DNA of 64,000 nucleotides, taken from contig NOWV01000010.1 in NCBI GenBank assembly GCA_003344405.1, positions 62,001 to 126,000 on the forward strand, given 5' to 3'. The stretch's first letter is position 1. The number at the start of each line of letters is the position of its first letter. The DNA comes from Trichoplax sp. H2. Its lineage: Eukaryota. Below the pieces are notes generated by a model. It did not search any database, was not told the DNA's origin, and saw nothing but the letters and a program-made list of their open reading frames with translations. Positions 5,263 through 28,944 of this stretch are shown piece after piece. The translations under genes were made by a program, and so were the position numbers.

Positions 5263-8116
5263 TCATGTACCCTTGTAGGAACGATTAATGAAATTGTCTA
5301 TCGTTAGTTTTGTGAATAAAAATCGAAAATGAATATCAACTATAGCTGGATTACTGGAAATGTGAAAGTAGAATAATTCAACTAAAATAAGAAGACGCGA
5401 TACAATAAAATGAACGAAGGAAGTTTCAATCGAAAACATTGCTTTCATTCGAAAATACATTCTTACCTTCCTCCCTTTTTTTATGGTTGGATTTTCTCTT
5501 CATTACAAAAATAATGCCTGAAATTACGAGCATAACTAGCACGCAACTTAATCCAACGCTTATTCCAATGATAGATCCACCATCGATATTTGGCAGAGCA
5601 TTTGCAGTCGTTGATTTAGAGAAATCTGAAATTTTTAATGATATACGAGTATGAAGGCTTAAAAATTATATTTATAAAAATATTATTTAAGATCGAAGTA
5701 ATAACTCAATGCATTGAAGCGTACCGGTTGTAACCGCTAATGGATTAGTCATAGTAGGGATTGATGTTGTGGTTGAGATTCCATCGGTAAAAGGATAACT
5801 GACTACAGTCTCAGCACTAGAAGTGCTCTTTAAGGTTGTAGTCGATTCCGTTTTTGGTTCTAGCGTTGTTAGATTATTATGAATGCTTGTAGAGTTATTA
5901 CCTTGTTAAAATGTTTTAAAAATAAGTCATAGTTTCAGAGGCGATATTTTATCGATAAAAATAGCTTTAAAACATACTATTTTCAAATCTTATCGCTAAA
6001 TTGCTATAGAAATAGTTGCTAGTTTGGAGATATCTCCTAGCATTACTTGGTGTCTTATTTTCAATAGTTACGATTTCGTCTGTTCCGGGTGTTTGCGTAG
6101 TTTGCACGTAACTATCACTGGGTGTACTATCATCGCTAGAGTTGGATATAACATTATCGGTACTATCGCCAATTAAAGTCGATGAAGGTGTCGACGGCTC
6201 AGTTTTAGCTGAATTTTCACTTTGCCCAATAGAGACTGTAGCAGTTTCTTCTTCAATATCCGAAGTTGTAAAGCTATCAGTGTATAGCCACGTTGGAGAA
6301 CTAGTAGGTACTGATGATTCTACAGTATGAGTTTTCGTCGTTGAGGCAACTGTAGTAGGTATATGATTAGTTGTTGTAGTTTTGATAGGAGTTGTGATAG
6401 TTTTGATGGGAGTTGTGGTAGTTTCGATGGGAGTTGTGATGGGAGTTGTGATGGGAGTTGTGATAGTTTTGATAGGAGTTGTGATAGTTTTGATGGGAGT
6501 TGTGGTAGTTTCGATGGGAGTTGTGATGGGAGTTGTGATGGGAGTTGTGATAGTTTTGATAGGAGTTGCAGTAGTTTGGGTAGGAGTTGTGATAGTTTTG
6601 ATGGGAGTTGTGGTAGTTTTGATAGGAGTTACTGTAGTTTGGATAGGAGATGTCGAGAATGTTGTTGTACTTTTGGTGACAGTTAGCGCAATAACAGTGT
6701 CTGTTGGATTAGGACCGTAGTTTCCTATCATAAAAATGTGCAGTGATACGAAATATCAGAATTAATGTATACCCAAATATATTCCATCTTTCAACTCAAA
6801 TATTAAGGCAATATTAACTAAAATGATATTTACAATTCCGTATATGATCAGCAAGTTGTTATACCATGTACAACAACTGTAATTTTGCAGATACTTGAAA
6901 TCAATAATTTTAATTATGTACGTAATTTACAAAGGATGATGAGGACGTCAAACTAGGAAGCGTGAGATTTCATTTCATTACCGTACTCTTACCAGTTATA
7001 AACATAGTTCCTAAAGTCCCGCTATCACCAATTCGATTTCTAGCAGACAGAGAGCAGATGTATAGCGTATTCTTTCTAAGACCTTCCATCGTCAGTGATG
7101 TTTGATTTGTTTCTGTGTTAACAAGATGTTGCGAAAGACCTTGTGCCTTACATCTGATTATAAAATGTTGCCTGAAGCCGTTATCGTATCCCGGCTTCCA
7201 GGAAAAATAGACTGAGGAATTCGTAAGGTTCTCAGGCTTAAAAGAAGTAGGAGGCTCCGGTGGGCCTGAAAAAATTACATTACATTGAAGACTATCTATC
7301 GCATTGGTAAATCTACAAAGAATTTATCGTAATCTAATAGAGGTTATTGTTCTTGAAATGTAAAATTGATATCACACAGTAATTAGTTATATCACGACTG
7401 TGTTGCTACTAGTTCATAGGTGCTATTTCGCTAATCTGATTGAATTACACAAGTTAATTGTAATTGAGGGTTTAAATAGTGTGAATTTAGTACAGTTAAA
7501 ATAAATACAATAATCAATCTGCTTCGATATAGTTAATAGATGATAAGTTTTATAGGGAAAGTCGTAATTTAAAAGATTTTACATGCTGCTGTAGGAAAAA
7601 TTGTATTTTGTAACGACTCTCAATAATTACTAGAACTTTACTTTCTTTTTTGCATAAGCTCTATTTAAATTTGCTGTACTTACTCATAACAACGACTGTT
7701 GTAGTTATGACTTTTTCATGGTTTGGTTGATATGAGGCTGTCCATATATAGTTTCCGCCATCGCTGGTGACCAAATTCTTAATGGTTAATCCCAATGTTA
7801 CTTCTGTTGAAGTCTTGTTGTAGAAACTTTTCATACGATTTGATGGCTTAATTTCGCCAGTCATATATTCATTAAAAGGACCAATAATTAACATTAACCG
7901 TGGGAACGGGGACTTCTGAAGTGTCAGTGTCAGTAATTCTAAGTTTCTTCCTGAGTTATCGGTCTTTTTGGCTGTACATAATAAAATTATATCCTCATTT
8001 ATTCTTGCGTAAGTCTTGCCAGATGGCGTCGCTAAAATGGCTTCGGTTACTGGTAAGTTTAAAGCGGCGACATTAAAGAGTAGCAGCATATAGCAAAGCT
8101 TTAGCCACTTAGCCAT
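5263..8116 (-). CDS. Type I membrane protein: signal peptide, Ig domain, FN3 domain, Thr/Pro-rich mucin stalk, TM, short cytoplasmic tail (6 exons predicted)
   Basis: Exons 8116-7684 (MAKWLKLCYMLLLFNVAA signal; Ig with C..DGGNYIW), 7265-6993 (FN3: PPEPPTSF..SVYFSWKPGYDNGFRQHF..LRKNTLYICSLSARNRIGDS), 6724-6047 and 5901-5725 (S/T-rich), 5625-5467 (TM GSIIGISVGLSCVLVMLVISGIIFVM-KRK), last exon ..DNFINRSYKGT* ending 5263. All joins are phase-1 GT-AG. Confidence 0.85.
6368..6655 (-). repeat. Coding tandem repeat (21-nt TTTPIKT-type and 12-nt ITTP units) of the mucin stalk
   Basis: Repeating gggagttgtgat / gatagttttgat units; the 29-aa block TPIKTITTPITTPITTPIETTTTPIKTIT occurs twice in tandem. 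Confidence 0.95.
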
Positions 8117-10086
8117 AGGAATAAAGAGCGGCAATTGATTGCGGAGGCTAACATTGAAAAATGAAAGTTTTAATTTAAATTAATTTAATGACTGCCCTCG
8201 TGCGTTCAATATGGTTGGAAAAAGAATTAAAAGTCCTTTATTCCAAATGTCGTGAGGTACATATCAGTCAATCTGAATAAAGTATTATAACTTAAAATGA
8301 TTTGAAATAAAACGAAATTTTAGTAGGTTTTTAGTAGCTAAGTGACAAGTTGGTATACAAGGACTGTAAAATCGGTATGAAATAAATTATATTGAGCTAA
8401 AATGGCGTCTGAAACTTCTTTTAACCATCAGCATAAAGTATCGACTTCGTACGCTTAAAGGATTATTTTGCGGGGATGCAGCACAGTAACAGCTTGGTAT
8501 AATTGATACACTCGTATTATTTTTATCTTATTTACATTAGCTTCTTGATAACCAATAGAACGGATGACAGGTATTGTTTGCATAATGTATTCTTATCTGA
8601 TGACAACAATATTTGCAAAATAATTGCAACCATGACAATTGAAGTTATTTCATTTGTCATACTGAGTCCCGCTATCGCTTACAGTTTATTGGAAGCTCTT
8701 TATATGTAGATTTATAATTTCATTGTGAAATGTTTTGCGGAATAAAATTTGGCTAAGTTATCAATTAACGGGTGCAACGATTTCTTAAAAATTAATGCCT
8801 AAAATGTAATTTAAATGGGTTAAAGATGAATTTTAAATAATTATCTTTGCAAAATTCTGTTTCTTCCTTCGGTTGATTAGCTTTATATAACAAGTACTGT
8901 AAATTTAATTTTTAGGCATAAGTAGTAGTGCTTAATAATAATTATTCATGTGCAAATAAGCAATTTAATAATGTGCTTAGAGCATCGACAAAGCAACTTT
9001 TATTTTGGTATATAACAAATAGATTCACTGCTTTAATATTTTGGTGTTTAAATGTACCCGGCTTTAAAGATTTATTTTTTAAAGAGTACCGAGATAAGTC
9101 TATAAAAATCTTCTTGGATTTCATTCGAAAATTCTATCATGTCATTAAATTGCATATGTATACCTGTCTATTTTCTTCTTTCCGTTTCATTTCATAATCA
9201 CAGATAGATGCACTTGGCTAATATTATAAAATGCTTAGCTTGTATGCTAATTTACAGAATAACGTGATTATTTTTAATAATTTACTAGGCGAATAATAAC
9301 TTAAATTTACTCCGATTTGCTTCCAGAATGTTCTCATGGCTCCTTTTTTTAATTAACTTTACATCCTTACACCGCAGAAAAGCTACGGTAGTGATATCAT
9401 ACTGAAATTTTACCAAATCAGAAATTGTGATACTTTTGCTAAAATCGCTTAACAAAATAAATATTTCATAGCAAGTAATTGTCATTCTTATGATCGGAAC
9501 TATCATACTTTTAATTAATCGTTACGTATGTCTAACTGTACACGCCCAATTTTGGTTGTGCGTAAAAAGACGATTGACGGACATTTCACCATGACAAATA
9601 GTGATCTTTAATAGTACATAGCGATTATTATTCATTGTCATCTTGTCTAAAGCGATGGATGAAACTTGTAGCAAGGGAGCAGCCCTATACTACAATGAAT
9701 CATTATTATCGTGATTTATCTCATGGATAACATTTCGAAATCTAGGTCTCTAAATTACTCAATTAATTCAAGTAAGTTTTAATATATTTCGATCTAAGTC
9801 TACGATACTTACAATTGCGAAATGCTATTTGTTAGCGTACATGGAGTTCGATTCTAATTATATTTTATCGATTCTTACTACATAATTTCATATACATAGT
9901 ATTAAGATATTTCACAGTAAAAATATTTGGATCTCATATAGATAGTTCAAGCTTTATTAATAACAAGTTGTCATGCAGTGAACAGGTAAATTACGGTATG
10001 TTCTGATTATTATGGTCACCGGAATTTTATAGAAGAAAAATAGAGGTATAAAAATTGGTTGATTTTAATTGGCAATTGATAATAAT

Positions 10087-10568: not shown

Positions 10569-11787
10569 CAAATACATAAGTATATATAAGTAGATAAAAA
10601 TATACTGTATGTAATTGTAATTATGTAACAGCTTCACGTAGATGTACGTCTATAGTATACCAATTATAGAATGTTTTAAATCTTCTGAACGTAGAAAAGA
10701 GCTTGTTCTGGATTTCTTAATCATGGCAGGAGTAAGCAGGCTAACTTAGCGTTTGGCAGTCACCTCATTTTTTTATTTAACATTTTCTTAGGCCCTGTGT
10801 TAAGTTTTCTTGTTAGTGAACCGGAAATTATCAAGTTGCAGAGGCTATAAATGAATGTCGAGCAATATGAAAAAGAAATTTTTCAACAGTTACTATACTA
10901 TTGTATTGTACGTATAAGAGGATGTTCTATGAACCACCAGTGAAACGAGCTAAGCAGCTTGTAGTTTTTTGGCAAATCTTTCGAAACTGAGTGGTAAATT
11001 TGATCTAAGAGGATTGAACTCTGAATTAAACTTGTGAATAAAAAAAAATCATAAATGGATTTACAAAGGTTAAATCCGTATTTTTGCTTAAGAGACAGCA
11101 ATATAATAAAATATTCAGTTAAATCGAGTTCATATCTAATTGAGATACAATGATTCGCATTACGATAGCTTATTACGTCTGCTCTCACTGGCACTGTCAC
11201 AAAAGCTCAAGTTACTAGAGCATAAGCAGGGACTACTAAAGAGAAATTAGTAGTTCCTGGTCTAACCTTCGTTGCTCTCGGTTAAAAAAATTTATTATAA
11301 TAATTATTATTGGGATGCAAAATGCTGTGCCAATAGCAAATCAAAAAATTTGAACTCTCTACCCTTATGTTTGCATAATCGCATCAATAGTACATATGTA
11401 GTGTCTGGTCCTTCTAAAAATAATATAATGAAATAAATTAGATTTTTCTGCTACGAGAGCCAGCTTAATCAAAAGGGAACGGGTAATAAGAATTGAGTCT
11501 AAGATAGCACATCGTAACCTTAGCCCGTAGGTAGAGCTGCAGGCTACGCTCTACGTGTTTTAGTGATGATACAGTAGCAATATCAAGTTCAGCTCAATAC
11601 AGCAAAATGAAAAAAAAAGTGTTACGGTTAATAATAAAGTCTCCATGGCCTAACCATTATAATTTATATATATATTATAATTTATACTATGTTTTACTGC
11701 AATCAAGAAATTTAAATTTCAGAACATCATCATGGTGCTGAGCTGAGCGTAATTTTGTACGGTAAAATACAGTAGAGACCCCTAGAA

Positions 11788-12095
11788 TGTACTGTACTGT
11801 ACAGTACTGTACACTGTATGGTACAGCATGCATACCGAAAACATACTGTACAGCACAGTAATCACACTTGGTCCGTTGTAGAATGTGGAGTACAGTACCG
11901 TAATTATGGACATACTGTACTGTACAGTGTACAGTACAGTATGTATCGTTTATGGTGAACTGTACAGTACTGTACTGTACAGTAAAGTTACTGAATTGCT
12001 TTACTCTTTTTTTACTACAGTACAGTATGTTTTGTTACGGTACTAAAATTTCAGAAGGTTTGTACTGTACCGTAGTGTACAGTACTGTACAGTAC
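11788..12095. repeat. TACAG/CTGTA palindromic simple-repeat array upstream of SMIM7
   Basis: Dense tactgtacagta / tacagtac pentamer units. Confidence 0.9.
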
Positions 12096-13961: not shown

Positions 13962-16900
13962 TTATCTTGCACAAGGAAAAGGGTTCAAAAGGGATTTGCT
14001 CTCCTATTATGGAAAAAGATACGTCTTAGATAGGAATGTTGTATAAATAAATCTAAAGGTGGATTCCATTTGACTTATGCTATATATTTTATACATGAAT
14101 TAACCTTGCTAGCTTTAGGCTTGCAGAAAACATTCCAAAACCTGAGAGTTTCATCGCCAGCACCGGTCACAATAGATTCTCCTTCAGGTGAAACGGACTA
14201 ATAATGTATATAATCAATATGATAAGCAAACATGTTATCAATGGTGAACTAATTATTATTAATTGCACGAGACTTATTGACATATTGACATATTTTCGGT
14301 TTAAGGCATGATATGTTGACTAATTAATAATAGATCATACCAAGTAGAGGACGCGATATGTGTGCCCTGATAGTTCAGCTACTTTGGAGAGAGACGGGTA
14401 TTTCCAAATAACGATATGATTCTTAGAGTAGCCATGTGTACTTACCTGTAAAGCGAATTTACAGGTAGTTATATATGATTGCTGACAACTAATTACATTA
14501 GTTGCTATATAGTACATCATAAATTTTACTGCTTGAAATACTCACCAACTCGTTTGTATACTTTGACCAAGCTAAATTGCATACTTGCGAGCCGGTATCA
14601 ATGCAATTTATTGATTGGTTGGTCAAAATATTTCTAAATCTGATGCAACGATCAGCCGTTCCACCCCCCGAGGCTAAAAGACCATGCTTCAGATATTAAA
14701 AAAATTTCTGACTTAAAATTGTTATTACGAACCCAAATGTTATGGCAAATGTTAACTTTAAAAAGGTCTCGTTTTAAGGTAGTGTAGCCGAATTAATGAA
14801 TCATAAAAATTCGTTTTCCTAACTTGCGGACATACATAAATTTTCGCAAAATCTCATTGCAGAAGAGCATTTAAATTAGCAAAGACTTCAATATAGCTTG
14901 CAGTTAAAAATTCACGTACAGATGAACAACGAATGCTGATAGTTATATTTAGTAATGTAGACTCCTCGACATCCTGCTTATATCTCGAACCTGATGAGGT
15001 GACCATGCGATTGCTTTTACGGCAGCTTCATGGTCAGCGTACGTTTGGATAGGAGTCTCGGCAGACAAGTTCCATATAAATAGCTAACAGAAAATGTACT
15101 GATAATTATAATCGTATTCGTGATCGTAATATTTATTACATAAATTAAAATTTAAAACCTTATTATCATTTCCTCCAGACGCTAAATATTGTCGGTCAGA
15201 CGACCACTTTAAACCACAAACCTTCGAATAAGTGAGTTATCATTATTAGATTAACATTTAGGAAGACGGAATATTGCAAGAGATGGTGTTACTGCAAGAT
15301 GAAGTGTAGTACTGCACCTCCTGTTTATGAGCCCTTAATTTTCGTGTAATTGAACATGGCGTTCTAGATCAATCAAATAAAGTTGTAATGATTCTTGCTA
15401 GCGCTAATGCCATAAACACCTAGAGTAACCTCTTTAAAATTTGGATATTATTTATTGATATAGGAAATAAGTAGTAACCTCAGATCGCGCTGGAAGATAC
15501 ATTTATCCCGGCTACCGGAGTATAGCAAATCATTATTCCATGCGAGTGTGCCTGGAATATAAATTGAATCCCGAATTTTAGCCGAATCTATTTACAAATT
15601 CAACCAAAAGGCAATATAAATAGCATATATGCCATATTTTAGAGATCAACGGACCAACTCGTGCAGTATGGCCATCTAGAAGAGCAATAAGTCTGGAGAC
15701 AGTTACGTCCCATATATGAATGTAGCCTCGCTGAGTTCCTACGGCAATGTGATTGCCCTGTAAAGTAAAACCATGCGTGCTAGTTCAATTAGTTTAAATC
15801 ACTATTAAAAGAAATTAGTGTATACTTTTTCAGTCCAGGAAACAGACGTAACCGAATCTCCTTCACTTTGGAAATCACATAACTTAGTAACCTAAATGAA
15901 AAACATTTCATTGTAAATAACACCCCGTTAATCGAAACAATGTTTTGGGGTTAAATTCAGTTGAATTTTACATTAACAACATTAATAAAAATTGTAGAGT
16001 CGGTTACCTGCCCGTTATTTGCACTCCATAAATACACACACGTTCCGAGACCAACACTCAACACGTTTTGTGGCGACCAGTCAACTAAATTTAAATAGAA
16101 GTCATCCTGAAAGAGTAGAGGCGGAAAGTTATTGTTTGGTTTTTCCGGGTATCTTTAACTCAAAGTAACCTGCAAATCTGGTGCATCCAAAACTTTATAC
16201 GGTGCCTTCGGTATTTTTCTAGGTGGCTATATCCGTACCAAAAAAATGCAGCTTAACGACTCATTGTGAAATAGGATCATAGGCTAAACTATTGAGCGCT
16301 ATCGACCATGTAAAGATAATTTCGGTCTAACCTTAGTTGCTGAACACAGCAGACTTTGACTATATAGGTAGATAATGAGCAATACAACTTAAAATTTAAA
16401 CTTGAAGCATAAACGTAATAGGAATTGTACAGTACCTATCGATTCCCAGAGGCGACATTGCATAACCAGCAATAAGCTTTTTTGAGTCATCAAATAATTT
16501 TCTTTTAGCAGGGGATTGATACTATCATAAACAGGTTATCAGGTATGTCGCCATTATTAAATTAAAAGATTATCAAAATCTCATGTTGCCGTTAGATAAA
16601 GGTACTCACTTCGAAAAGGTTGCAACTGTTTTCTCTTAAAGTGCTGATCTCTCTCGGTGTTGTTTGCTTCGGTTAAGAGATGTTTTAATAACATATTAAA
16701 AAATAAGCCAAAGCAAACCTGCAAGTTCGCTAGTAAACCATGTTATGTCTTACCTCCGTTCTTGTTCCTAACACTTCATTCGCTATTACGCAATTGTACA
16801 TCTGATTTTCTTTACATTGAATATACGTTTAAGGAAATCCGTGAGTAGATACATGTGATTCAAGGTTTAGTGCATTAAATACGTTTCTGTTTACTATTCA

Positions 16901-17702
16901 AGAAGGCTGCCCTCGCAATAGTAACATTAAGCTTTGCTTAAGCCGAGTAAAGCGCAGAGTTACAAGAAACCACGGATCTCTAGGGACCCGTATAAAAAAC
17001 TGATATAGCATTTACATTCGCACGTTCTCTCAGGAATATTATATTATTTACGGACCGTAGTTATAAACATCATCAAAACCACAAACCTTTACTAGATTGC
17101 GCGTTGCCATCTGAGAATACTGTATTATTTCTTTTTTGGGATTCCTTTGACTGTATTTAGTTAGTAATGAAAATACCAAAGACAGATTGAAATTCCGTTA
17201 AAATTAAAATTATTTAAATTGGTAAATACACCAGTAATAGCTATGAAAAGCTGTTTATTGTTGAAGTGGATGAAGAAAGGTACAAGGTACAATTATACTG
17301 ATACTGCACATCGCATAGCATATTAAACAGACAGTGATTTCACCTGCAATAAATTAAATTTTCCGTTCCAGTCGGATGATGATCGATCAGGAATGAAGCT
17401 GGGTACCCATGGGAATCATGAGATGGTTAACAAGACAAGTTTGTTAGCATTTTTGTGAAATCTTAAGACGAAATATATATATTACAATGCATAGTATACC
17501 GATTACAACACTTTTCTTTGGAAGGCAGTGGTGACATCATCGTGTGCTCTGCTCCGACCTGAAAGGTTAATTAATCAGATAGAAGTCATTAGTAAAGATG
17601 TGCGCGTCAATGAAAATGGTAACTGAAGTTTTAGTCCAGGTTAGAGAATACCAAAGTAGAAGATGGACTATTCATCAAACGCTTATTGTAGTTGGTATTC
17701 AT
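13962..17702 (-). CDS. FZR1: Fizzy-related / Cdh1, APC/C WD40 co-activator (multi-exon)
   Basis: Start MNTNYNKRLM; RFIPDR C-box region; RKIPKAPYKVLDAPDLQ|DDFYLNLVDWSPQNVLSVGLGTCVYLWSA; ASGGGTADRCIRF; STHGYSKNHIVIWKYPSL; SPEGESIVTGAGDETLRFWNVF; last exon 14003-13962 ESKSLLNPFPCAR*. Confidence 0.95.
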
Positions 17703-19468
17703 GTCGACAGCCAGATAGCATATAATCTAGAAAAATTGAAAATCTTTTACGAATTTCATAGCGAAAATACTATATTATAATAAAGTTGCAGCAATTTCAC
17801 TGATATAACTGTCATAACAGATTTGAATTTGTGCTCTACAGGAAATCGGATTACTGGTTAAAAAGCAAACTGTAGGCTTATCTCATGTAATCTTCGATAA
17901 TTTTTATTACTGCTTTCCATGGGAGCGAGATTTGAAATTTGGACGAGAGTGTTCTGGCATTTGGTGATTATTGTCGAACGTTTGCGCGGGCACGGGCGCC
18001 ATAATTAGCACTAATGTCAGTCTCTGATACATACTATCGGACAGTACGTTAACTTTGTGGCTAGTTAATGGTGTTACATGCATTTTTATTTTAAAGTTAA
18101 AAGTATTGAAGAGTGAGTACGTCAGAGTTTAACAGTTCTTTTGAGTGGCATTAGAGTACTTGATGGTAGTTAAATCAATGAACAAGCAATTGTAAATACA
18201 AACGTATTATATAACCAGAAACAGGATAACGGGCTGATTCGTTGAGTAGTAATAATTTAAGATTATAATAGATATGTGGTGTTATAGTCGGATATGAAAA
18301 GATAATAGAATTCCGTACAGTATTTATACATCTTTTTAAGACATTAATCAATTTATTAAGTTCGATGAAGTTTCAGACAACAGTTTGTACATAATCTCAT
18401 CCGTTAATTGAGCATTATATCGAGTTAAGCTGACAGCGAGGGAATTACGAAGTGGGTCATGAAATTGCCTTGATCTAACTGCACGTATTGTTTTTAGGGG
18501 CTTGAAAGAAATCCTGATCTTCTCACAAAGTGATTTCGTTAAATATTTAATGCTTGGCCTTCACATTTGGAACTAGTACATTTGCAATATACTAAACACT
18601 GCACCGAATACCTACGATCGAAATTTTATAATTACGAGTGTACAACTGTAGTACCGTATAAGTCTTTGCAATTAATTGCGATTATAGTATAGCAATCTTT
18701 AGAAGGCTTATAATGCATAAATAAAGGAAAAGACATTACGAAATTTATTGTCCAATGAACACCATTGCAGAAAACTAAGCCAAGAATCTCAGGTTTTAAG
18801 TATTCATAGGTACAATTGAACAGGACTTATAAGGCTTTGATTAAGTTAAGAGTTCACCTGTAAAGCTGATATGGTAATTCATTACGAGTACAGTATGGAT
18901 ATTATTATTGTATTGGGGAATTTTATTATTCAAGATACGCATAAATGTTTAGTTTTGAAGGCTATCTACAGTTAGAATGGTATCTTACGCTAGCGACGTT
19001 TGGACCTTGAGAAATTTAAAAAGATGAACCCACACACTGATACAGAGTGTAACTCTGTATAGTGAAATCAAATTGATCCCACTACAACATTATTAATTAA
19101 AACATCAAGAACATACTGTGTGCACTATACGTGCAAAGCCGGTTGATTAAGTACAGTACCGTACTGAATTCAGCCGATTCATGTTAAAATAAAATATTTT
19201 AAATGCTATAAGACCGTTACTATAAAGCGCAGGATTTTAAAATAACTTAATTACCTCTACTTACGCGATGTAACCAGCGTAGACAGTGTACTTTCACAGT
19301 TTAGATGAATTGAGAAGCTGCCGAGAAATTCAATTAAACTACCCAAAGTCTGAAATAGTTTTTAATTCTGTATTTGCAGTTAAATAACAGTCAATCAAAA
19401 TTCCGCAGCTACCGCTCGGGTCTTAAAGCTTTTCAAATCTATTGCCGCGGATCTTTACTCCTCGCTAC

Positions 19469-20005
19469 AGTACCGCATACACTATAGTACAGTATACTGT
19501 ATAGTACAGTACAGTATATCGTGCCAATGTTGCCAACCTCTACTGTACCGTACTGTACGCTTCAAGATAACTTACTGTACAGTATTGTACTGTACAGTAT
19601 GCAGACGGCTGATCCTGATTTTTCTAAATTAACAGTACTGTACAGTACTGTACTGTACTGTATGTACTGTACAATAGTACATTGAATCTTATTATTGGTT
19701 ACTAAAGCTCTTCTTAGAAACAGCTATATAAGATCGTCAATGTTATTCAAAATAGTACTAGTAGTAGAAAACCGAGTCAGAAGATCCATACTAAGCAGTC
19801 ATTTTCGATATTGACGGTTTCGTTTGGTGAAAGAAGTCCGTCCGTCTACAGTATATTAGAGACCTTTACTAAATCTACAGTACTGTACGGTACTGTACAG
19901 TACAATATACTGTACATGTACAGTATACAGTATTGTACAGTACAGTACATTATGATAGTACTACGGTACAGTGTACAGTACAGTACAGTACAGTACAGTA
20001 TACCA
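19469..20005. repeat. TACAG/CTGTA arrays in the divergent FZR1 / receptor-PTP intergenic region
   Basis: Two blocks (~19469-19680 and ~19875-20005) of tacagtac repeats, followed by an AAT microsatellite at ~20010-20045. Confidence 0.9.
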
Positions 20006-20102
20006 TAGCAGTAATAATAAAGTAATAATAATAATAATAATAATTAATTATAATGTAATTTTATGCACGCACTATATCTTTATATCCTCCACTTCGGCGA
20101 AG

Positions 20103-23100
20103 ATGTCAAGGATTTTAAATATTGGCTTTGGTTTAGCCTTTATTGTAATCGTGTCCATTACAGGTTTGTTAATAATTATTATCGCTAATATGGCTGAGAT
20201 GGAATCGTAGACGTCTAGCTATTCATATTTCGGTGTGGATTTCATTTGATAAATAACCAGTTTAAACCGGCAAATGTGCAGGAGTGCAGGTGTTTTTTTT
20301 TAGCTATGACTGAACCTGCAAATGCTGAAGATATCGTCTTTTCAGTTTCTTAAAACTTACTTAATTAAAAATCCAGGCTAAAAGGCTTAGTCAACGTTCG
20401 AATATGCAACACTGGTGTTGATTAACACCGTAGCTCGGAGACGCTTATTACGACATTGAGTAATATGGTAGACGTAGTCGTTGATTAGTGGGATAAGACA
20501 TTTTGTTTTGATAGTTAATTGAACTTACGCATACTGTAAACGAATTTGCACATAATATTAGTATCAATAATAACGCCATATAGTGAAATGCAAGAAAAAG
20601 TCGTGGCTGTATTATTGACAATGAATATCGGTATACAGAATGAAACATTTTACGGGAAGTTGATCTAATTTTACTACCTATAGCTAATAACAGCCTGTAC
20701 ACGAGCCGTCCAGTAAATGAAGGATACAGCACTGTAGTAGCACTGTTCATGATTTCTGGACTTTAAACATTACAGTCTATTTATGCCTGTAGGCAAGTTA
20801 TTTTGTGCGCTTATACTCTTCGGATGATCGCCTATCGTCGTAAGCTACTAATTTTGAATCTCTGAACGCTGCACTTCTGCAAGTACGATCTTACTGTGCC
20901 GACAGATTCATGTTGATCCTTGTGCTGTACTAGTAGCTAGTTGTCAAATGACTATACCGATTAATTTTGATGATAGTTTTTCAATCTGCGGGCAAGCACT
21001 GTACCGTACCGGGGACAACGAGTGAAATACGTGGAGACGCGGAGTAGTGTTTGAGTAGATTATGTAGTTATGAATGACTGGATGAGTGGTCTGTACTGTA
21101 AGTAAGGTAGTACTGTACAGTATGTGCTCTTAATATAACTGCAAATGGAGTAGCGCCATAATTTACGTAATTTTACGTATCAAGTAAAGCACAATATTTA
21201 TCCATCCCCTACGACTTACTGCTGATAGGTTCAAGTCATTGACTACCAAAAAAGACCTTTTTCTAGCAGTCCTGGTTAATCCTGCTGTCCCACTGGTAAT
21301 TGTGGTGTAATTATTGTAAAGTAGATTCTTCTTATCCTGGACAAACTGCGAGCTATATTATACGTGTATGTTCCTTATATCAGCATTAACAGTAAATTAA
21401 TCATGAAGTTTTCTGTACTGTAGTATTCATACTAAAGTATAATGTAACGCTATCCTTCGCACAGTAGGCGACGGTGCTGCTTCTAGTTGATCCCAATATA
21501 TTTCATAACGTATGTTATATCGCACGGGGTTAGACCAGCGCTGGTGAATTGCTTTGCGTTGAATAATGTCGAAGAACGTTGATTTTCCCTTGATACTCTT
21601 TGAATTTATATGTTCTGTAGCTGCATCATATCTTCAATTAACCTAAATATAAATTTGCAGAACTGTATTAGTCCTTTTTTGCGCTTGGATGCAGCAGATA
21701 ATATTTCCGAAGTAAATAATACGCGATCTGGAAAATCAGTTATGATCTTACTGACAACTAATATCCCTTTTGGTTTTATTATAATTATTCATCAGGACAT
21801 TGTACAAGAGGTCTCTCTTTGTATTGTTCTTATCGCCTGCCGATGGGCTTTGATGAGGATGACTTTTACTCTATTAGATGCTGGACTAACAATGATAATA
21901 CAAAGTTTACTTGGTCTAGAGTTTCATCTCGTGTATCGCCTTTTCATGTCAGCACGGATCAGTATCAGATACAGAATAAGTCCGGTGAATCAACATTAAT
22001 CTTGCCGTGGAATTCTCTAAACGATTTTTATCGTTACGCTGGTGTATATGAATGCCAAGCAACAAGCACAGCCAGTAATTCTCCCCAAAGGAAGACTTTA
22101 TGGGTTGGAGTTACTCATTCTGCATGTAAGGGTATATTTAATTTCGACCTTTTAATTAATGCATTAACGATTTCAGTTGTGATATATTTAGATCTTAGAA
22201 GCCGTTAACACCTCTGTTTTTAATTATTTATTTAGCTCCTGTACAGCCATCAATTATTTCACAAGTTGGCTATGTTCGCGATACCTTAGTGTTAACCACG
22301 TTATCGAATAATGTCGTAACTTGTAATTATATATGGTACCACAACGGCTCACGTTATACCCGATGTGACAATGCTTGCAACTGTAGTTTTGATAGCTTGA
22401 GATTACAAGATGCCGGAGTTTATGAAGTGATTTATCCGGCATCTGACAAATCTAATATTACTGGTGCTTTTATGACATTAACTGTTTTAGGTAAGTTACG
22501 CGTACAGTACATCGGAAATATATACCTTGGAATCTCTGCTCTTCTGGTATTAGTTTATTTTATTCTTTACAGAGAAAAAATGTAGCCAAAATCAAAACTG
22601 CCTCAACGGAGCCATCTGCATGACAGACAATAGTTGCGGTTGCCTTCCAGGCTTCAATGGTACTTCGTGCCAGACAGGTTAACTGTAAATCTACAAATGT
22701 CATTCATTCTGTTATCACATGGTTAAATTGCAACTAGATACGCTTAAAGCTTATCATTAAAGGACAATCTCTATTATTATTAGCTTGCAGTCTTCCGTTT
22801 CGTTGTGGGCCTGCATGCCAATTTGCTTGTCAGCCAGAAAGTGTGTACTGCAGTTCCGATATGTATGGGTGTATGTGTCCATCTGGAGTAACTGGCATTA
22901 GCTGTAAAACTGGTAGGTTTGAGGTTTTTTGAAACTGCCTGTAGAGAAACAGGCGGTATTAAATAAATTATGTAATACTCATTTCCTGTCGTAAGAATGA
23001 AGGTTATATTTTAATATTAGATTCGTGTCCTGCTGACAACTATGGACCAAATTGTCAACTGAAATGTAATGGGTGTAATAATCATGGAAGCTGTCAGTCA

Positions 23101-26100
23101 AAGACGGGTTGTTTGTGCCAGTCTGGATACTCTGGAATCTACTGTGAAGAAGGTTATTATTATTTTCTGTGTTAATAAAAAAATTACTGCTGCGAAGACT
23201 GTTTCTTCGATTTCTAAATCCTAATTAATTTAAACAGTTGCAGGCGGTTCCGTAGTTGTTATAATTGGTGTCGTTGTCGCAATTATTGCTGCTGTTAGTT
23301 TAGGAGTGATTGCTTACATTTGGTACAGGTATCAAACGTAGTAGATTACAATACTGAAATTGTTTATCAACTGTTTCCAGAAACCAAATTAATGCTAATT
23401 TATTTTGCAGCCGTCGCCGCGCTAGAGCTTTAGCTAATATCAAATCACCAGATCCTGTCGTCATTGTTGATGCATCTGGTGATAATCCATCGTCCTTAGA
23501 TACTAATTTAATCCGGTCACGATTAGGACAGTATAAATACGTAGTATCCAAAGGTAACTGTTACACGGAGAAAAGTTGCATAATTTGGTCGATACGGCTT
23601 ACAGTAATACCTCTATGTCGCTTGTACATTTTAGCGCAAAAGGCATCATTGGTTCAAAATATTAAGATCCCGACTAAACCTATAATTGTTAAGGACCTGC
23701 TTGATCGTATTAACGCTTTGAAGGAAGATTCGGCTCTTGCTTTAAAGGAATTTGAGGTGAGTAAATTTGGAACGGTTGCTTTGATATAAAGTGGCATGAC
23801 TGCATTCATTCTCCTTGCTCCTATAGTCCATCCCTCCTTGTAAAGAGACCCATGCTATTGCAGACATGAAAGGGAACGCGAAAAAGAATCGTTCTCAAAG
23901 TGTTATTAGTTGTACGTTTATTAATTATATAATATACAGTAAACGTCCAATTTTTTATTTACGATATCGGTGATCCTATTCATCAGATTAAATGATTTAT
24001 TTCCTAGATGATCATTCAATCGTCACAATCGGCGATGGAGGAGTCAATTCGTATATTAATGCTTCTCATGTTCATGTTAGTAAAGATTCCTTATAATGAT
24101 TCATAGTAGGGAACAGAAAGCTTTTTCTAATGCTTTACTGATTTAACAGGGATACATGAAACCTAATGGTTACATAGTAACTCAAGGTAATTGCAATTTA
24201 TCCTGGCCGCTAAAATTAAATTGCATATATGGCTTGAAGATAATTTCGAGTTATTAATCAGTTAATCGTAAAGATGTGTAGATTGTTAGATAATATTTCC
24301 CAGGATTAGCTAAATTTAGAACTGGCTATGAAATTAGGTCCTCTAAAGTCAACATGCAATGATTTCTGGACCATGGTTTGGGAAAAGGAAACCTGTGCAA
24401 TAGTGATGCTCACAGAGTTATCTGAGAAGGACGAGGTTAATTATTCAAAAGGATTTGATTCTTAGGTTTATAAATTTAGGCCAAATTTGCCTTACGTGTA
24501 CCTGTTAAATTTTTTCAGCAATTATGTTACAAGTACTGGCCAGAAGAAAAGGATACTTATGGTAATGTATGTGTCACTCTAGAGAACGTAAGCAAGAGGA
24601 GCTGTTATACAGTCAGAACTTTTCATTTGCAAAAGGTAGTGTATAACCTTTAATACTGTTACGTGACATAAACTTTCTCTAAATTAGTATTTGCTCCAAA
24701 ACTATGCAGGTTGGAGAAGTAGAAAAGCAAGAAGTGAAACAGTTTCACTTCACTGCTTGGCCCCACGGTGGTATACCTGAATCCAGTACAGGGCTTTTTA
24801 GATTTAGGTCACTGGTACATGCTTTTAACCCCTCCGATGCTGGTCCTATCGTTATTCATAGCAGGTATGGCATATTACCTATACGCCTTTTGATCTTATC
24901 TTAAGAATGGTGATTTTCATTTATAGTGAAGGAAGTAGTCGTTGTGCTATGTTTGTTGCACTCGATATCAATCTTGACCGCGCCCGCAAGCAAGGTGATA
25001 TTGATGTTTTAGAAAACGTTGGTTTGATGTCGCATCATCGAAAAAACATTTTAGTCCGTGTTGTAAGTGACGTTGTTCTTCATAGATAGCTTTGTCTGAA
25101 CACCACCATGATCATTTGTATTTAAGGCCAGTAAGAATTTTTGTTTCTGTATTGATCTTTCATTTCAGAATGAATACTTATTTGTATACGAAGCAATACT
25201 TGATGCTCTAATACGAGGCAATACGCAAATGTCGCTTAAGAATTTGCAAACCTTCGTAAGCCGGGCAGATACATCCGAATCGGGCTCCAAAAACAATCCT
25301 TATACCATCATGTTTCAGGTAACATACTAAATGAATTAGATTAGTATCGAGATTGCTATTAGTATATGCGAAATCAGCCGATGAATATTTAAGCTACGTT
25401 TCGTTTTGGTAAAGTGCTTACGATGTCAGGAGGGAGAACATGATGATTTCGCTGGAGCTTCGTTATCTGCAAATGAAAACAAAAATCGTTTTCCTGATAT
25501 CTTAGCTAGTAAAGTCCTTAAGTCTAATATTCTAAAATAGGCAGTTTTCATTTATATTTATCGTTGTATGAAAGTGTATCAGCGTTAATAATTATATATT
25601 TTATGACTCAGGGGATAAATATAGGGTTAAACTTTCAAGCAGTGACAGCTCAGACTATATAAATGCTGTATTTATTGACGTAAGTTTTGTGATGATGCTG
25701 TACTATGCAACATTTATTATGCTGCTAGTTGATGTGATGTAATATTAGCAAAACACTTATTACAGAGTTACTTAAGAGCAAGAGAATTTATTGTCACCCA
25801 ATATCCACTACCGAATACTATAAATGATTTTTGGAAATTAATCATGGAACAGAACGTTGCGTGTGTTGTTACCTTGGGATCATTTAGTAATCATCCGGTA
25901 AACTTATTTGATTTATGTTTTATTGAAAATACATGTAGATAGCTAATCATTTTTATAACATTGGTGCTTCTATAGCCTTATTGGTGGCCTTCTAATAAGA
26001 AGCACGACGTATACGATAACATTAAGGTTGAGATTTTGGAAGTAGCGACGGTAGATGACCTAACTATAAGACAATTAAAGGCAACAGAGAAGGTTTAGTA

Positions 26101-26751
26101 ATTCCATTTACCAGTGATTCGATTTATTCATGCGTTTATTCATTACGATGTTATCTGATTATCTTTTCTTAGAATCATTCTAAAACTAATATAATGAGCC
26201 AATTTCAACTCAGTGGTTGGGAAGATGAGGATAAAGCGCCAGCCCAAGCTTCTACGATTATTAATTTAGTAAATCGTGTGCAAGAATGTATAAAAACAGT
26301 TCGCGAACCAGGACCTATTGTTGTTCAATGCCTGTACGTTAATATTACAAGCACAATACATTTTTACATTAATTTGATGTTGAGCTATAGGTAATGCTGT
26401 CTTAGTTTCATTTTATTGTTTATAATTATAATTCGCGTATGTCATTAACAGTAATGGCAGAGGACAAAGTGGAACTTTCTGCACGATTTACTCTGCGTTG
26501 AATACGGCGATTGAAGAAAAGGCTGTTGATATTTATTCTGATGTCCTTTCAATGAGAGTAGCTAGACGAGGATTAGTTCAGTCAGAAGTAAGAACTTATG
26601 CTGCGTCTTTTGAAGAGCTGATTTATCAGCCGAACTATTTTCAGTTGCTGATAAATTTCCATTTTGAAATGAATTAAATTTATTTTAGGAGCAGTTACGA
26701 TTCTGTTTTGAAGTTGTCGTGAAATACACTCAAGATACTGGATTGCTGTAG
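20103..26751 (+). CDS. Receptor-type protein tyrosine phosphatase-like protein: signal peptide, 2 Ig, 3 EGF (Tie-like), TM, tandem PTP D1-D2 (both degenerate)
   Basis: Exon 1 20103-20163 (signal [21 protein letters not shown]); Ig exons ([20 protein letters not shown]); three Cys-rich EGF exons ~22573-23151; [29 protein letters not shown] motifs: [38 protein letters not shown]2 [36 protein letters not shown]. Stop TAG 26749-26751. Confidence 0.92.
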
Positions 26752-27594
26752 CGCGTTTAGGATAATAATGAAGTTTTTGATTTTATGAATAACCAGCTAT
26801 AATAGTTAAGATAACCATATCGTGTTTTATCAGTAAAATCGTCACAGAAAACATTTTTAAGTGCTGCTGCTTACGCTTAATTATTTCGTGCAAAAATTCT
26901 TGTGCAGCATATGTGTTATATAGGTAATGTCAAAGGCAGGTGTTTCGGTTAGGTTTATATATCTTCGGCGGATAACGCATCGTCCGGCGATTACGAAAAT
27001 TTAATTGGTGTTTTACTGTAGCACAGCTCTTTGCTCTTTTTTGAGTTTATTTGTGACCTACATGTATTGTGTATCACTATAATACATAGAAGAATAACTT
27101 TACTTATATCGTCGTAAGTTGAAATGTTAGCGGAAATACAGGAACAGAATTGTTTCTATATATCTCATACAATGACATTAATCTCGATGATAGTACATAA
27201 ATTTTAAATTAAGATCCAATATAAGGATTAAATATAGTAATTGATTAATTAAAATTGATGCTATGGATTGAAAACAGTCAGATAAGCCCATGCCGTTCAA
27301 GTTTATAAGTTATATTTTTTATTTCGTACTTAAAATGCCAATATCTAAAGATAAATTAATGTTGTAATTTCATATTGCCTAGTTATGCAAATATATTACA
27401 AATTCACTTATATTATCTGAATAAGTTGTGGTGTTTTTAATATACTAAATGATCATAATTATTAGCATTTTTCTATTGTCTGTAAAAATTAATTGTACTA
27501 TACAATCTATATGTATGCAACCGTTTTATTTTTGGTCAATTTTTAAAGTTAATTTTTGGTAATTGAATCAACGATTTTTCGTGAACTTCGGAAA

Positions 27595-28944
27595 TTATTG
27601 TTTTCTCCATGCGATATCCATGTACCGAGTTATTTCTGTGTTTTGTCGTGGATGATGAATGCGTTTGTCTTTGGAATGTATCTGAAGCAATGATTTAATG
27701 TCAGGTTAATAAAGGCTGCCATATTATATCGCAGTATCTATCTGCATTGACAAACTAAAATAATATTACCAGAGGTTCGGTGTACCATCCTATTTCTTGA
27801 GCTTCAGTTTGTGGTTCCATGTATTTATGGCTGGGTGTATCATGCGAATGCTTCACTTTTTCGAGAAAATTTGCTATATTGTGTAGTTAACGCAGTAGAA
27901 TAAAGATTTATGATTCATATGATATACGGTACAGTTTGATGGCTTAATTGGTAATTGTTATGGAAAATAAAGCTTATATGTAATAGTTAAAAATCTGAAA
28001 GTTGTAGATTTACTTTACGCTTTAAAATTATGCAACACAGACGCTAACTGGAATCATCACAAATACTTTACATTTGTCATGAACATCGAGTCTACTTAAA
28101 GTGCCATCCTTTCAAATTTTATCGAACAGCTTTCAGTGGGAATAGAATTACTGAATTAGGTCTTAAGTACTGTAACATCAACATTGAAAATAAAATTATA
28201 TATTGCGTTATTAACTTATTATGTGTTTATGACTTTACTCCGACAGCACGAAAACTAGTGCCTTAGTTGCATTTTGTGTTTGTCTATGCTTACATACAAT
28301 GCATAGTCCTGTACATATACATATAGATTTCTGCAATACATTTTGCACTATCCATTGCATTGGTTACATTCTACTGTTTAGTTATATATGTTATATATTT
28401 TAAAAATAAATCCCAACTTCTGCATTACATTTTAAAACTCAAAGTGTAATTTGAGCTAACTCATAAGTAGGACGAATCTATAAAAACATAACAGTCACTT
28501 ACAGTCTGTATTGCTATCGTTGAAGTCTTCATTTTCATTGACTTTGCTCGTTAGTGTATAAACTATATTAGGATTAAAATGGTGACGTTAGGATTTAATT
28601 ATAATATTGCTTCTACCTTGGAGTGTTATATGGCTTTAAAAAAAATATCGGGAAGCGACGATAATATGATTGTCTATATTATACTCTTGTGATAGAAATA
28701 CAGAGATGCTTTTCACTAATAAATAAATCGTATTGTAAACAGTTTTTCCGTAATAAGATCAACCATGATTTATTGCCTTACGTTTGTTATAAGGGTTTAC
28801 ATTAAAGGTAGTATAGATCCTTTGCTGGCGTTGCTCTTTTTTGATAGTTTCGCAAAGGATATCATTCTGATGAACGAAGTTCAGTGGTTCCGTGTCTATC
28901 TGTTTCTTCTTGTTAACCGTTGTCCGATTCTTAGTGTCAGCCAT
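27595..28944 (-). CDS. CFAP144: Cilia- and flagella-associated protein 144 (FAM183 family), 4 exons
   Basis: Exon 1 28944-28782 ..FVHQNDILCETIKKEQRQQRIYTTFNVNPYNK; later exons LYTLTSK.., PSHKYMEPQTEAQEIGWYTEPL, IHSKDKRIHHPRQNTEITRYMDIAWRKQ*. These match FAM183 motifs VHQNxIL, P..KY..PQTE.QEIGW and EITxY. Confidence 0.9.

Follow-up and report, generated by a model that had tools for sequence, protein, structure and literature searches.

Can a receptor protein tyrosine phosphatase (PTP) serve an animal when neither of its two cytoplasmic PTP domains has the residues for catalysis? The question is raised by a spliced gene on the plus strand of a 64,000-nucleotide stretch of contig NOWV01000010.1 of Trichoplax sp. 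H2 (the window, G+C about 33%, positions counted from its first letter), which encodes a receptor with two tandem PTP domains, D1 and D2, and for which an original prediction had been drawn from the letters of the window. In this study, we compare this receptor with its two-domain relatives, follow its transcript in four sequencing runs and weigh what its cytoplasmic part might do. With a probability of about 0.7, we read it as a type I membrane pseudophosphatase receptor with an immunoglobulin (Ig)- and epidermal growth factor (EGF)-like ectodomain and D1-D2 domains of LAR-type/cnidarian ancestry, which would act without catalysis as a scaffold or decoy.

Catalytic residues of the two PTP domains

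Residues were assigned by direct reading of the window and by HMMER alignment to the D1D2 tandem of PTP-sigma. In D1, the phosphotyrosine (pTyr) loop reads KNRS (23884-23895), with Ser at the Tyr position, and WPHGG (24758-24772) has His at the position of the general-acid Asp. The D1 P-loop (24854-24945) is interrupted by a 62-nt intron (24865-24926), as supported by the sequence, the alignment and an RNA joint; it begins with I-H-S (24854-24862), continues with a Ser whose codon AG/T lies across 24863-24864 and 24927, and ends in EGSSRC (24928-24945). The catalytic Cys position is occupied by Ser (codon AGC, 24860-24862), and Glu, Ser and Ser stand at the Ala, Val/Ile and Gly positions, with the Arg retained. 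Both Gln positions of the Q-loop, VRVNEY, are changed, to Val (25054-25056) and Glu (25172-25174), and the Lys before the YWP motif has become Leu.

The pTyr loop of D2 reads KNRF, and its Q-loop is intact with both Gln present. Its WEDED (26218-26232) has Glu at the Pro of WPD in a loop one residue longer, and an Asp is present at the aligned general-acid column. The D2 P-loop (26323-26473), interrupted by an intron at 26334-26451 on the same three kinds of evidence, reads V-Q-C (26323-26331), a Leu whose codon lies across 26332-26333 and 26452, and NGRGQSG (26453-26473); the Cys is retained (26329-26331), and Gln stands at the Arg position (26465-26467) as well as at the His position (26326-26328).

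The Cys-X5-Arg pair is thus found in neither domain, D1 having the Arg without the Cys and D2 the Cys without the Arg, and the set of residues that marks an active PTP (EC 3.1.3.48), namely a nucleophilic Cys, P-loop Arg, WPD Asp and Q-loop Gln, is complete in neither. Every motif named by the original prediction is present in the window, and its proposal that both domains are pseudophosphatases agrees, by sequence, with the absence from both of residues for classical PTP catalysis. A PTP fold that is kept, catalytic residues that are replaced and a gene that is expressed and intact together fit the description of a pseudophosphatase, and both domains would be without phosphotyrosine phosphatase activity, making the receptor a putative double pseudophosphatase.

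Transcript and gene model

Contigs of four runs (X10, X12, X8 and X18, from four studies under three organism labels) were aligned to 14000-28000; X10 is recorded as RNA, and X12, X8 and X18 are presumed to be RNA; their contigs skip introns. The gene is represented by a single long spliced contig in each of X10 (3796 nt), X12 (3369 nt) and X8 (3965 nt), and by shorter pieces in X18. These long contigs reach from about 21793 (X10) or 21819 (X8) at the 5' side to 27565 or 27681 at the 3' side, the listed pieces of the X12 contig starting at 22782, and at least 15 GT..AG joints are found among the joints listed. The joint within the D1 P-loop, 24864/24927, for which the original prediction had looked to RNA data, is a GT..AG joint in four of four runs, and so is the joint within the D2 P-loop, 26333/26452, the contig overhang on the shorter side being up to 138 nt and 136 nt, respectively. 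All seven internal D1 joints are GT..AG in X10, X12 and X8, with X18 adding 24864/24927 and 25062/25169; the joint 26587/26689 is present in all four runs, and the joints of the EGF-like exons are GT..AG in three or four of them. For the four D2 exons with joints outside those listed, one GT/AG combination only fits both the 722 nt of contig coordinates and an open frame. No variant letters are listed at the catalytic codons in the RNA contigs of the four runs, and no alternative exon with a [H/Q]-C-x-x-G-x-x-[R/K/Q] P-loop is found in 20001-28000 on either strand.

The resulting RNA-supported model has 23 exons with canonical splice sites throughout and 958 open codons, from the annotated Met at 21843 to the stop at 26749-26751. 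The receptor gene is transcribed and spliced as modelled, and the earlier view that an intact frame and intact splice sites speak against a pseudogene is borne out by the 958 open codons and by spliced RNA in four runs.

The coding start probably lies upstream of the annotated Met, the frame being open from the acceptor 21795/21796. A probable first coding exon (20103-20163, plus strand) would supply a Met and a hydrophobic signal peptide, and its CAG/GT donor at 20163 is in phase with that acceptor. The X10 contig has 55 nt more 5' of 21793, and the bin 20071-20537 has a depth of 3.9, which equals 55 x 33.1 / 467 and fits this exon; the joint 20163/21796, absent among the listed joints, is put forward from this depth together with the fit of splice sites and phase. 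Downstream on the same strand, RNA contig pieces trace two exons of Ig-like ectodomain modules (21796-22125 and 22236-22490, together 21796-22490), the first of which contains the annotated Met. They are followed by EGF-like Cys-rich repeats, one per exon (22573-22677, 22784-22912 and 23021-23152, within 22573-23152), recognised by RNA joints and Cys spacing, and by a transmembrane exon (23238-23328) with two juxtamembrane exons (23411-23553 and 23635-23756, within 23238-23756), placed by RNA joints and a hydrophobic stretch. RNA joints and motifs delimit the eight exons of D1 (23827-25318: 23827-23911, 24008-24075, 24150-24186, 24338-24435, 24519-24635, 24710-24864, 24927-25062 and 25169-25318), and RNA joints and the frame delimit the seven exons of D2 (25415-26751: 25415-25508, 25612-25679, 25766-25897, 25976-26092, 26173-26333, 26452-26587 and 26689-26751, with the stop at the end). 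A 3' untranslated region (UTR) follows at 26752-27681, the X12 and X8 RNA contigs reaching 27681.

Among known proteins, TRIADDRAFT_57823 of Trichoplax adhaerens (coded P0001, 955 aa, 'uncharacterized protein') is 100% identical to the exon 24710-24862, and it is the cytoplasmic part of this protein that 23827-26751 encodes. P0001 differs from the RNA-supported model in three respects, I456V, 13 extra residues and 16 missing residues, the latter two being splice errors within D1: a wrong acceptor at 24480 adds the 13 residues where RNA backs 24519, and a wrong donor near 24599 removes the 16 residues where RNA backs 24635. The dropped residues contain the conserved Y-x-x-R-x-F beta-strand of PTP domains. 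The D2 part of the two models is identical, and P0001 is probably also without its signal-peptide exon. In Pfam comparison, P0001 matches Y_phosphatase (PF00102) in two stretches with an E value of 1.2e-114 and 382.2 bits (cut-off 20.9), a pattern that is beyond chance and that, with the structural match described below, establishes two domains of the PTP family. The first Ig-like module gives a weak I-set match (E 0.0055, below cut-off, beginning at profile position 27), EGF_2 is matched with an E value of 0.0041 (below cut-off), and P0001 has no Pfam match to fibronectin type III (fn3) or MAM. One public source labels P0001 'protein-tyrosine-phosphatase', an enzyme label that is probably wrong.

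Comparison with two-domain relatives

An exhaustive HMMER search of representatives supplied the relatives: of its best 150 (27-37% identity), 133 with exactly two near-complete PTP domains were kept and 17 dropped. The D1 catalytic Cys, Ser in Trichoplax, is present in all 133 relatives. The other D1 positions replaced in Trichoplax are conserved almost as widely: the general-acid Asp (now His) in 127 of 133, the P-loop Ala (Glu) in 121, the second P-loop Gly (Ser) in 128, Gln262 (Val) in 120 and Gln266 (Glu) in 132, and at the pTyr-loop position, where Trichoplax has Ser, 99 relatives have Tyr and 24 have Phe. The P-loop Arg, found in 131 of 133, is retained. Among the 49 D1 columns conserved in at least 90%, 14 are lost in Trichoplax, against a median of 1 and a next-highest count of 11; three of these 14 fall in an alignment gap (the DHSRVxL stretch), where inspection by eye shows the Val retained and Ile in place of both Arg and Leu, and the remainder lie mostly in the P-loop, the WPD loop, the Q-loop and the Lys before YWP. 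D1 retains the fold motifs DFW, TQGP, IVMLT, YWP and QFHF.

Of the 35 columns with at least 80% conservation across D2 domains, the Trichoplax D2 retains 33, and the P-loop Arg that it has lost is also missing in 50 of 133 relatives, six of which have Gln there. As aligned, the state of D2 is ordinary and D1 is the exception, because 50 of 133 relatives have a D2 without the Arg but none has a D1 without the Cys. The original prediction had laid weight on both domains; the loss in D1 is indeed unusual, but that in D2 is not special, being shared in kind by these 50 relatives. The D2 domains of receptor PTPs are described as generally inactive (PMC7320164).

It could be argued that D2 has residual or altered catalysis, its Cys working with an Arg two positions earlier than usual in the loop, or that D2 is a redox sensor. 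In its favour, the Cys, both Q-loop Gln and an Asp in the general-acid column are still present in D2, none of the other 133 D2 domains has an Arg at the Val/Ile position of the loop, and a redox-sensing role has been discussed for PTP domains with impaired catalysis, in PTPRU and in D2 of PTPRA (PMC7320164). However, the Cys-X5-Arg spacing is broken, the His before the Cys has become Gln, the Pro of WPD has become Glu in a lengthened loop, and loss of the Arg, seen in more than a third of the relatives, is the usual mark of an inactive D2, so that we give this explanation a very slim chance.

The Trichoplax protein has no strict HCxxGxxR motif, whereas 148 of the 150 representatives and 119 of 119 other listed hits of a word-indexed search do have one. 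The two exceptions among the representatives are P0253, which has L-C-x5-R, and the amphioxus protein P0184, which is without the Arg in both domains. Under a looser rule, in which Cys, Arg or Asp is missing in D1 and likewise in D2, seven of the 133 relatives are also degenerate twice, namely proteins of Branchiostoma (P0184), Hydractinia (P0256), Antedon (P0162), Haliotis (P0182), Diadema (P0191), Opisthorchis (P0225) and Conger (P0216, PTPRU-like), all of which retain the D1 Cys. Hydractinia P0256 has WPH in D1 yet an intact HCSAGVGR loop, and the eel protein P0216 has WPE and a divergent pTyr loop.

Ancestry of the cytoplasmic domains

The best solved relatives of the receptor are the D1D2 tandems of PTP-sigma (3sr9, E 1.4e-95), LAR (1e-92) and RPTP-alpha (1.2e-87). 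The two domains were concatenated for a FastTree LG tree, which places the protein in a 40-member clade with LAR-type and cnidarian receptors (support 0.986) and, inside it, beside receptors of Hydra, Hydractinia, Dendronephthya and Nematostella with weak support (0.446). We therefore assign D1-D2, with moderate confidence, to a LAR-type/cnidarian 'S-like' ancestry, on one quick tree in which the branch is long. HCxxGxxR is present in D1 of seven of the seven nearest cnidarian relatives and WPD in six, and because all seven have an intact D1 P-loop, the degeneration of D1 appears to be specific to placozoans and to have arisen in their lineage after the split from these cnidarian relatives. 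A tree of D2 alone grouped the protein with amphioxus P0184 (support 0.887), a grouping lost in the concatenated tree and taken as long-branch attraction.

While D1-D2 groups with the LAR-type receptors, as expected of the R2A subfamily, the ectodomain does not show the R2A order of Ig followed by fn3 modules. We do not file the protein as an R2A member because its ectodomain is without fn3 and has EGF-like repeats instead. Membership of R2B with PTPRU is not indicated either, since neither a MAM-Ig-fn3 ectodomain nor an R2B-like D1 was found and the protein lies in a different clade; the resemblance to R2B/PTPRU would be functional only.

Predicted structure

P0001 was modelled with AlphaFold2 from an alignment of 50 rows. 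The predicted local distance difference test (pLDDT) score is at least 90 over most of D1-D2, with low spots in D1 at P0001 residues 513-528 (below 50, covering the spurious 13 residues) and 552-555 (beside the dropped stretch). The ectodomain is poorly modelled, with pLDDT below 50 for residues 1-193, and a long helix is predicted at residues 307-340, in the transmembrane/juxtamembrane region. Superposition on the D1D2 tandems of PTP-sigma and LAR (2fh7/1lar) gave target-normalised template-modelling (TM) scores of 0.89-0.90 and root-mean-square deviations of 2.6-2.8 A over about 585 columns. The PTP fold and the tandem arrangement are thus predicted to be preserved in D1-D2.

Constraint on the gene

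A gene that has lost so many active-site residues might also be under relaxed constraint and heading for loss, transcribed and open but with no maintained function. Of 134 proteins, the Trichoplax receptor has the longest terminal branch for D1 (1.23; median 0.38) and also for the concatenate (1.29), and its D2 branch ranks 14th. No placozoan ortholog was found in word-indexed, HMMER, exon-based and metagenome searches. The word-indexed search with residues 385-955 gave, besides the self-match, the 119 other listed hits at 26-35% identity. The exhaustive HMMER search of representatives gave its best 150 at 27-37% with P0001 itself unlisted, and is thus weak as evidence of absence. A search of the D1 exon against longer proteins found P0001 only and against proteins of similar length no candidate, and a metagenome scan found four loci at 30-49% identity, from other animals. 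As a separate observation, the exhaustive search returned neither P0001 nor anything above 37%, although P0001 is in the 90% collection.

The RNA contigs show four coding variants in 2877 nt, of which D400D and V924V are synonymous and I317T and E579D nonsynonymous, and five variants in the 930 nt of the 3' UTR. The density in the coding sequence comes to roughly a quarter of the 3' UTR value (Fisher p 0.044), and pN/pS is about 0.27, from four sites only (binomial p 0.20). While the branch lengths, the searches and the two nonsynonymous variants would suit relaxed constraint, the gene keeps its 958 codons open across 23 canonically spliced exons in an AT-rich genome (G+C about 33%), a spliced transcript was assembled in four runs of four studies, the losses in D1 are concentrated in the active site with fold motifs and nearly all conserved D2 columns kept, and the coding sequence varies less than the 3' UTR. 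We infer that the pattern fits a pseudoenzyme better than a decaying gene, because D1, which has changed more than that of any of the 133 relatives, keeps an open frame, splice sites and fold motifs and because D2 is conserved normally; decay has a slim chance.

Several points nevertheless weigh against a maintained pseudophosphatase receptor. Lack of activity in both domains is deduced from residues; a very long D1 branch is also expected under relaxed constraint, no placozoan ortholog emerged from the searches, and two of the four coding variants are nonsynonymous. Contigs lose rare isoforms, and 50 further joints lie outside those listed; the AlphaFold2 input, P0001, has two splice errors in D1 and was modelled with an alignment of active relatives, which makes the model uninformative on the competence of the pocket.

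Proposed function and known systems

In the pseudophosphatase reading, the receptor would carry a signal peptide, Ig-like and EGF-like modules, a single membrane span and tandem D1 and D2; its ectodomain might bind a ligand or a neighbouring cell, and D1-D2 might bind and hold the clients of active phosphatases, as a docking scaffold or a decoy, in the way shown for human PTPRU. By this analogy, a decoy or scaffold is our best functional guess. The original prediction had named decoy, scaffold and phosphotyrosine trapping side by side; the first two are kept, and trapping has become weaker with a pocket changed at many positions. Its further suggestion of a partnership with a Tie-like kinase or a PTP found no support, as no kinase or second PTP motif is present in the whole window on either strand, and 'Tie-like' describes the gene's own Ig/EGF ectodomain.

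Cys-to-Ser and Asp mutants of active PTPs serve as substrate traps, and it is therefore tempting to regard D1 as a natural phosphotyrosine reader or substrate trap that binds phosphotyrosine via the P-loop Arg and the backbone and holds and protects its clients. In D1 the Arg and the central Gly of the P-loop are still there, as is the His preceding the nucleophile position, and the D1 fold is confidently predicted. In an engineered trap, however, a single residue is changed and the remaining pocket is kept. Here Ser has taken the pTyr-loop position, which in 123 of 133 relatives is Tyr or Phe, and neither Q-loop Gln remains. Ser also replaces the second P-loop Gly, Leu stands for the Lys before YWP, and a Glu instead of the P-loop Ala brings a negative charge into the phosphate cradle. 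The degenerate D1 of PTPRU, moreover, binds clients without binding phosphotyrosine (PMC7320164). We consider a phosphotyrosine trap unlikely because so many positions of the pocket have changed together, the P-loop Glu among them, and more doubtful still is the wider claim that D1 is a naturally evolved trap, with which the receptor would read phosphotyrosine while anchored in the membrane and so protect phosphorylated proteins or fix their location. If true, it would mean a phosphotyrosine-reading receptor in an animal without nerves or muscles.

The scaffold or decoy reading has its closest known counterpart in PTPRU. With two pseudophosphatase domains, a state described as unique among human receptor PTPs, PTPRU acts as a decoy, and its binding to the substrates of its active paralogue does not depend on phosphotyrosine (PMC7320164). 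Both receptors have tandem D1-D2 domains, inactive in PTPRU and predicted to be so in Trichoplax, with a D1 still recognisable and a proposed scaffold or decoy role for clients of active relatives. The two differ in that PTPRU keeps the Cys and HCX5R and is dead by loop rearrangements, whereas in the Trichoplax D1 the Cys itself is replaced, together with the Asp and both Gln. They would also be of independent origin, the Trichoplax protein lying in the LAR-type/cnidarian clade and not in R2B, and its ectodomain is Ig-like and EGF-like with no MAM or fn3 match.

The LAR-type (R2A) receptors PTPRF, PTPRS and PTPRD and the cnidarian 'S-like' receptors give the best D1-D2 sequence and structure matches and share the 0.986 clade, and the Nematostella relatives have in common with Trichoplax the 'QC.NG' start of the D2 loop; unlike Trichoplax, however, these receptors have an active-type D1 (HCSAGVGR, WPD) and an Ig and fn3 ectodomain, at 31-34% identity. 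Another inactive receptor-like PTP is IA-2/PTPRN, which owes its inactivity to an acidic residue at the P-loop Ala position and a lost WPD Asp. Unlike the Trichoplax protein, it is a dense-core-vesicle protein with a single PTP domain, a kept Cys and a different luminal domain. The seven doubly degenerate relatives resemble the Trichoplax receptor in that both domains are degenerate by sequence, a state that arises repeatedly, but they keep the D1 Cys, and only Hydractinia P0256, with its intact P-loop, groups with Trichoplax in the concatenated tree, at low support (0.446). The Trichoplax D2, in turn, is like an ordinary receptor PTP D2 such as that of PTPRK in keeping the Cys and losing the Arg, and could plausibly offer a docking surface, as D2 of PTPRK recruits Afadin (PMC9640194); the ordinary D2 serves an active D1 on the same chain, whereas the Trichoplax chain is predicted to have no active D1.

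A literature search, with supplements outside its scope, found nothing on TRIADDRAFT_57823 or on placozoan pseudophosphatases. Pseudophosphatases, inactive D2 domains and one double-pseudophosphatase receptor, PTPRU, were already known; what stands out here is the replaced D1 nucleophile, the putative independent origin and the host lineage. The Trichoplax receptor would thus have reached a PTPRU-like state independently and more drastically, its D1 nucleophile being replaced, in a lineage among the earliest to branch off within the animals. Taken with the seven predicted cases scattered over other phyla, it points to a repeated origin of catalysis-free receptor PTPs. It may also offer a simple system for asking what role is played by D1-D2 domains unable to dephosphorylate.

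Other features of the window

A low-complexity repeat with TVQYS-like strings in several frames occurs at 19400-20050 and at 11687-12034; in the RNA contigs its summed depth is very high, and chimeric joints and loose ends are numerous there. On the minus strand, a gene of the CDC20/Fizzy-type WD40 family lies at about 14300-16150 (PF24807, E 5.6e-18 for one exon) and is covered by run contigs. Another receptor-like gene is found on the minus strand at about 5967-8179, and combines an fn3 match (E 3e-9) and an Ig-like stretch with a mucin-like repeat rich in Thr and Pro, which is built from about 13 copies of a 21-nt unit at 6369-6653.

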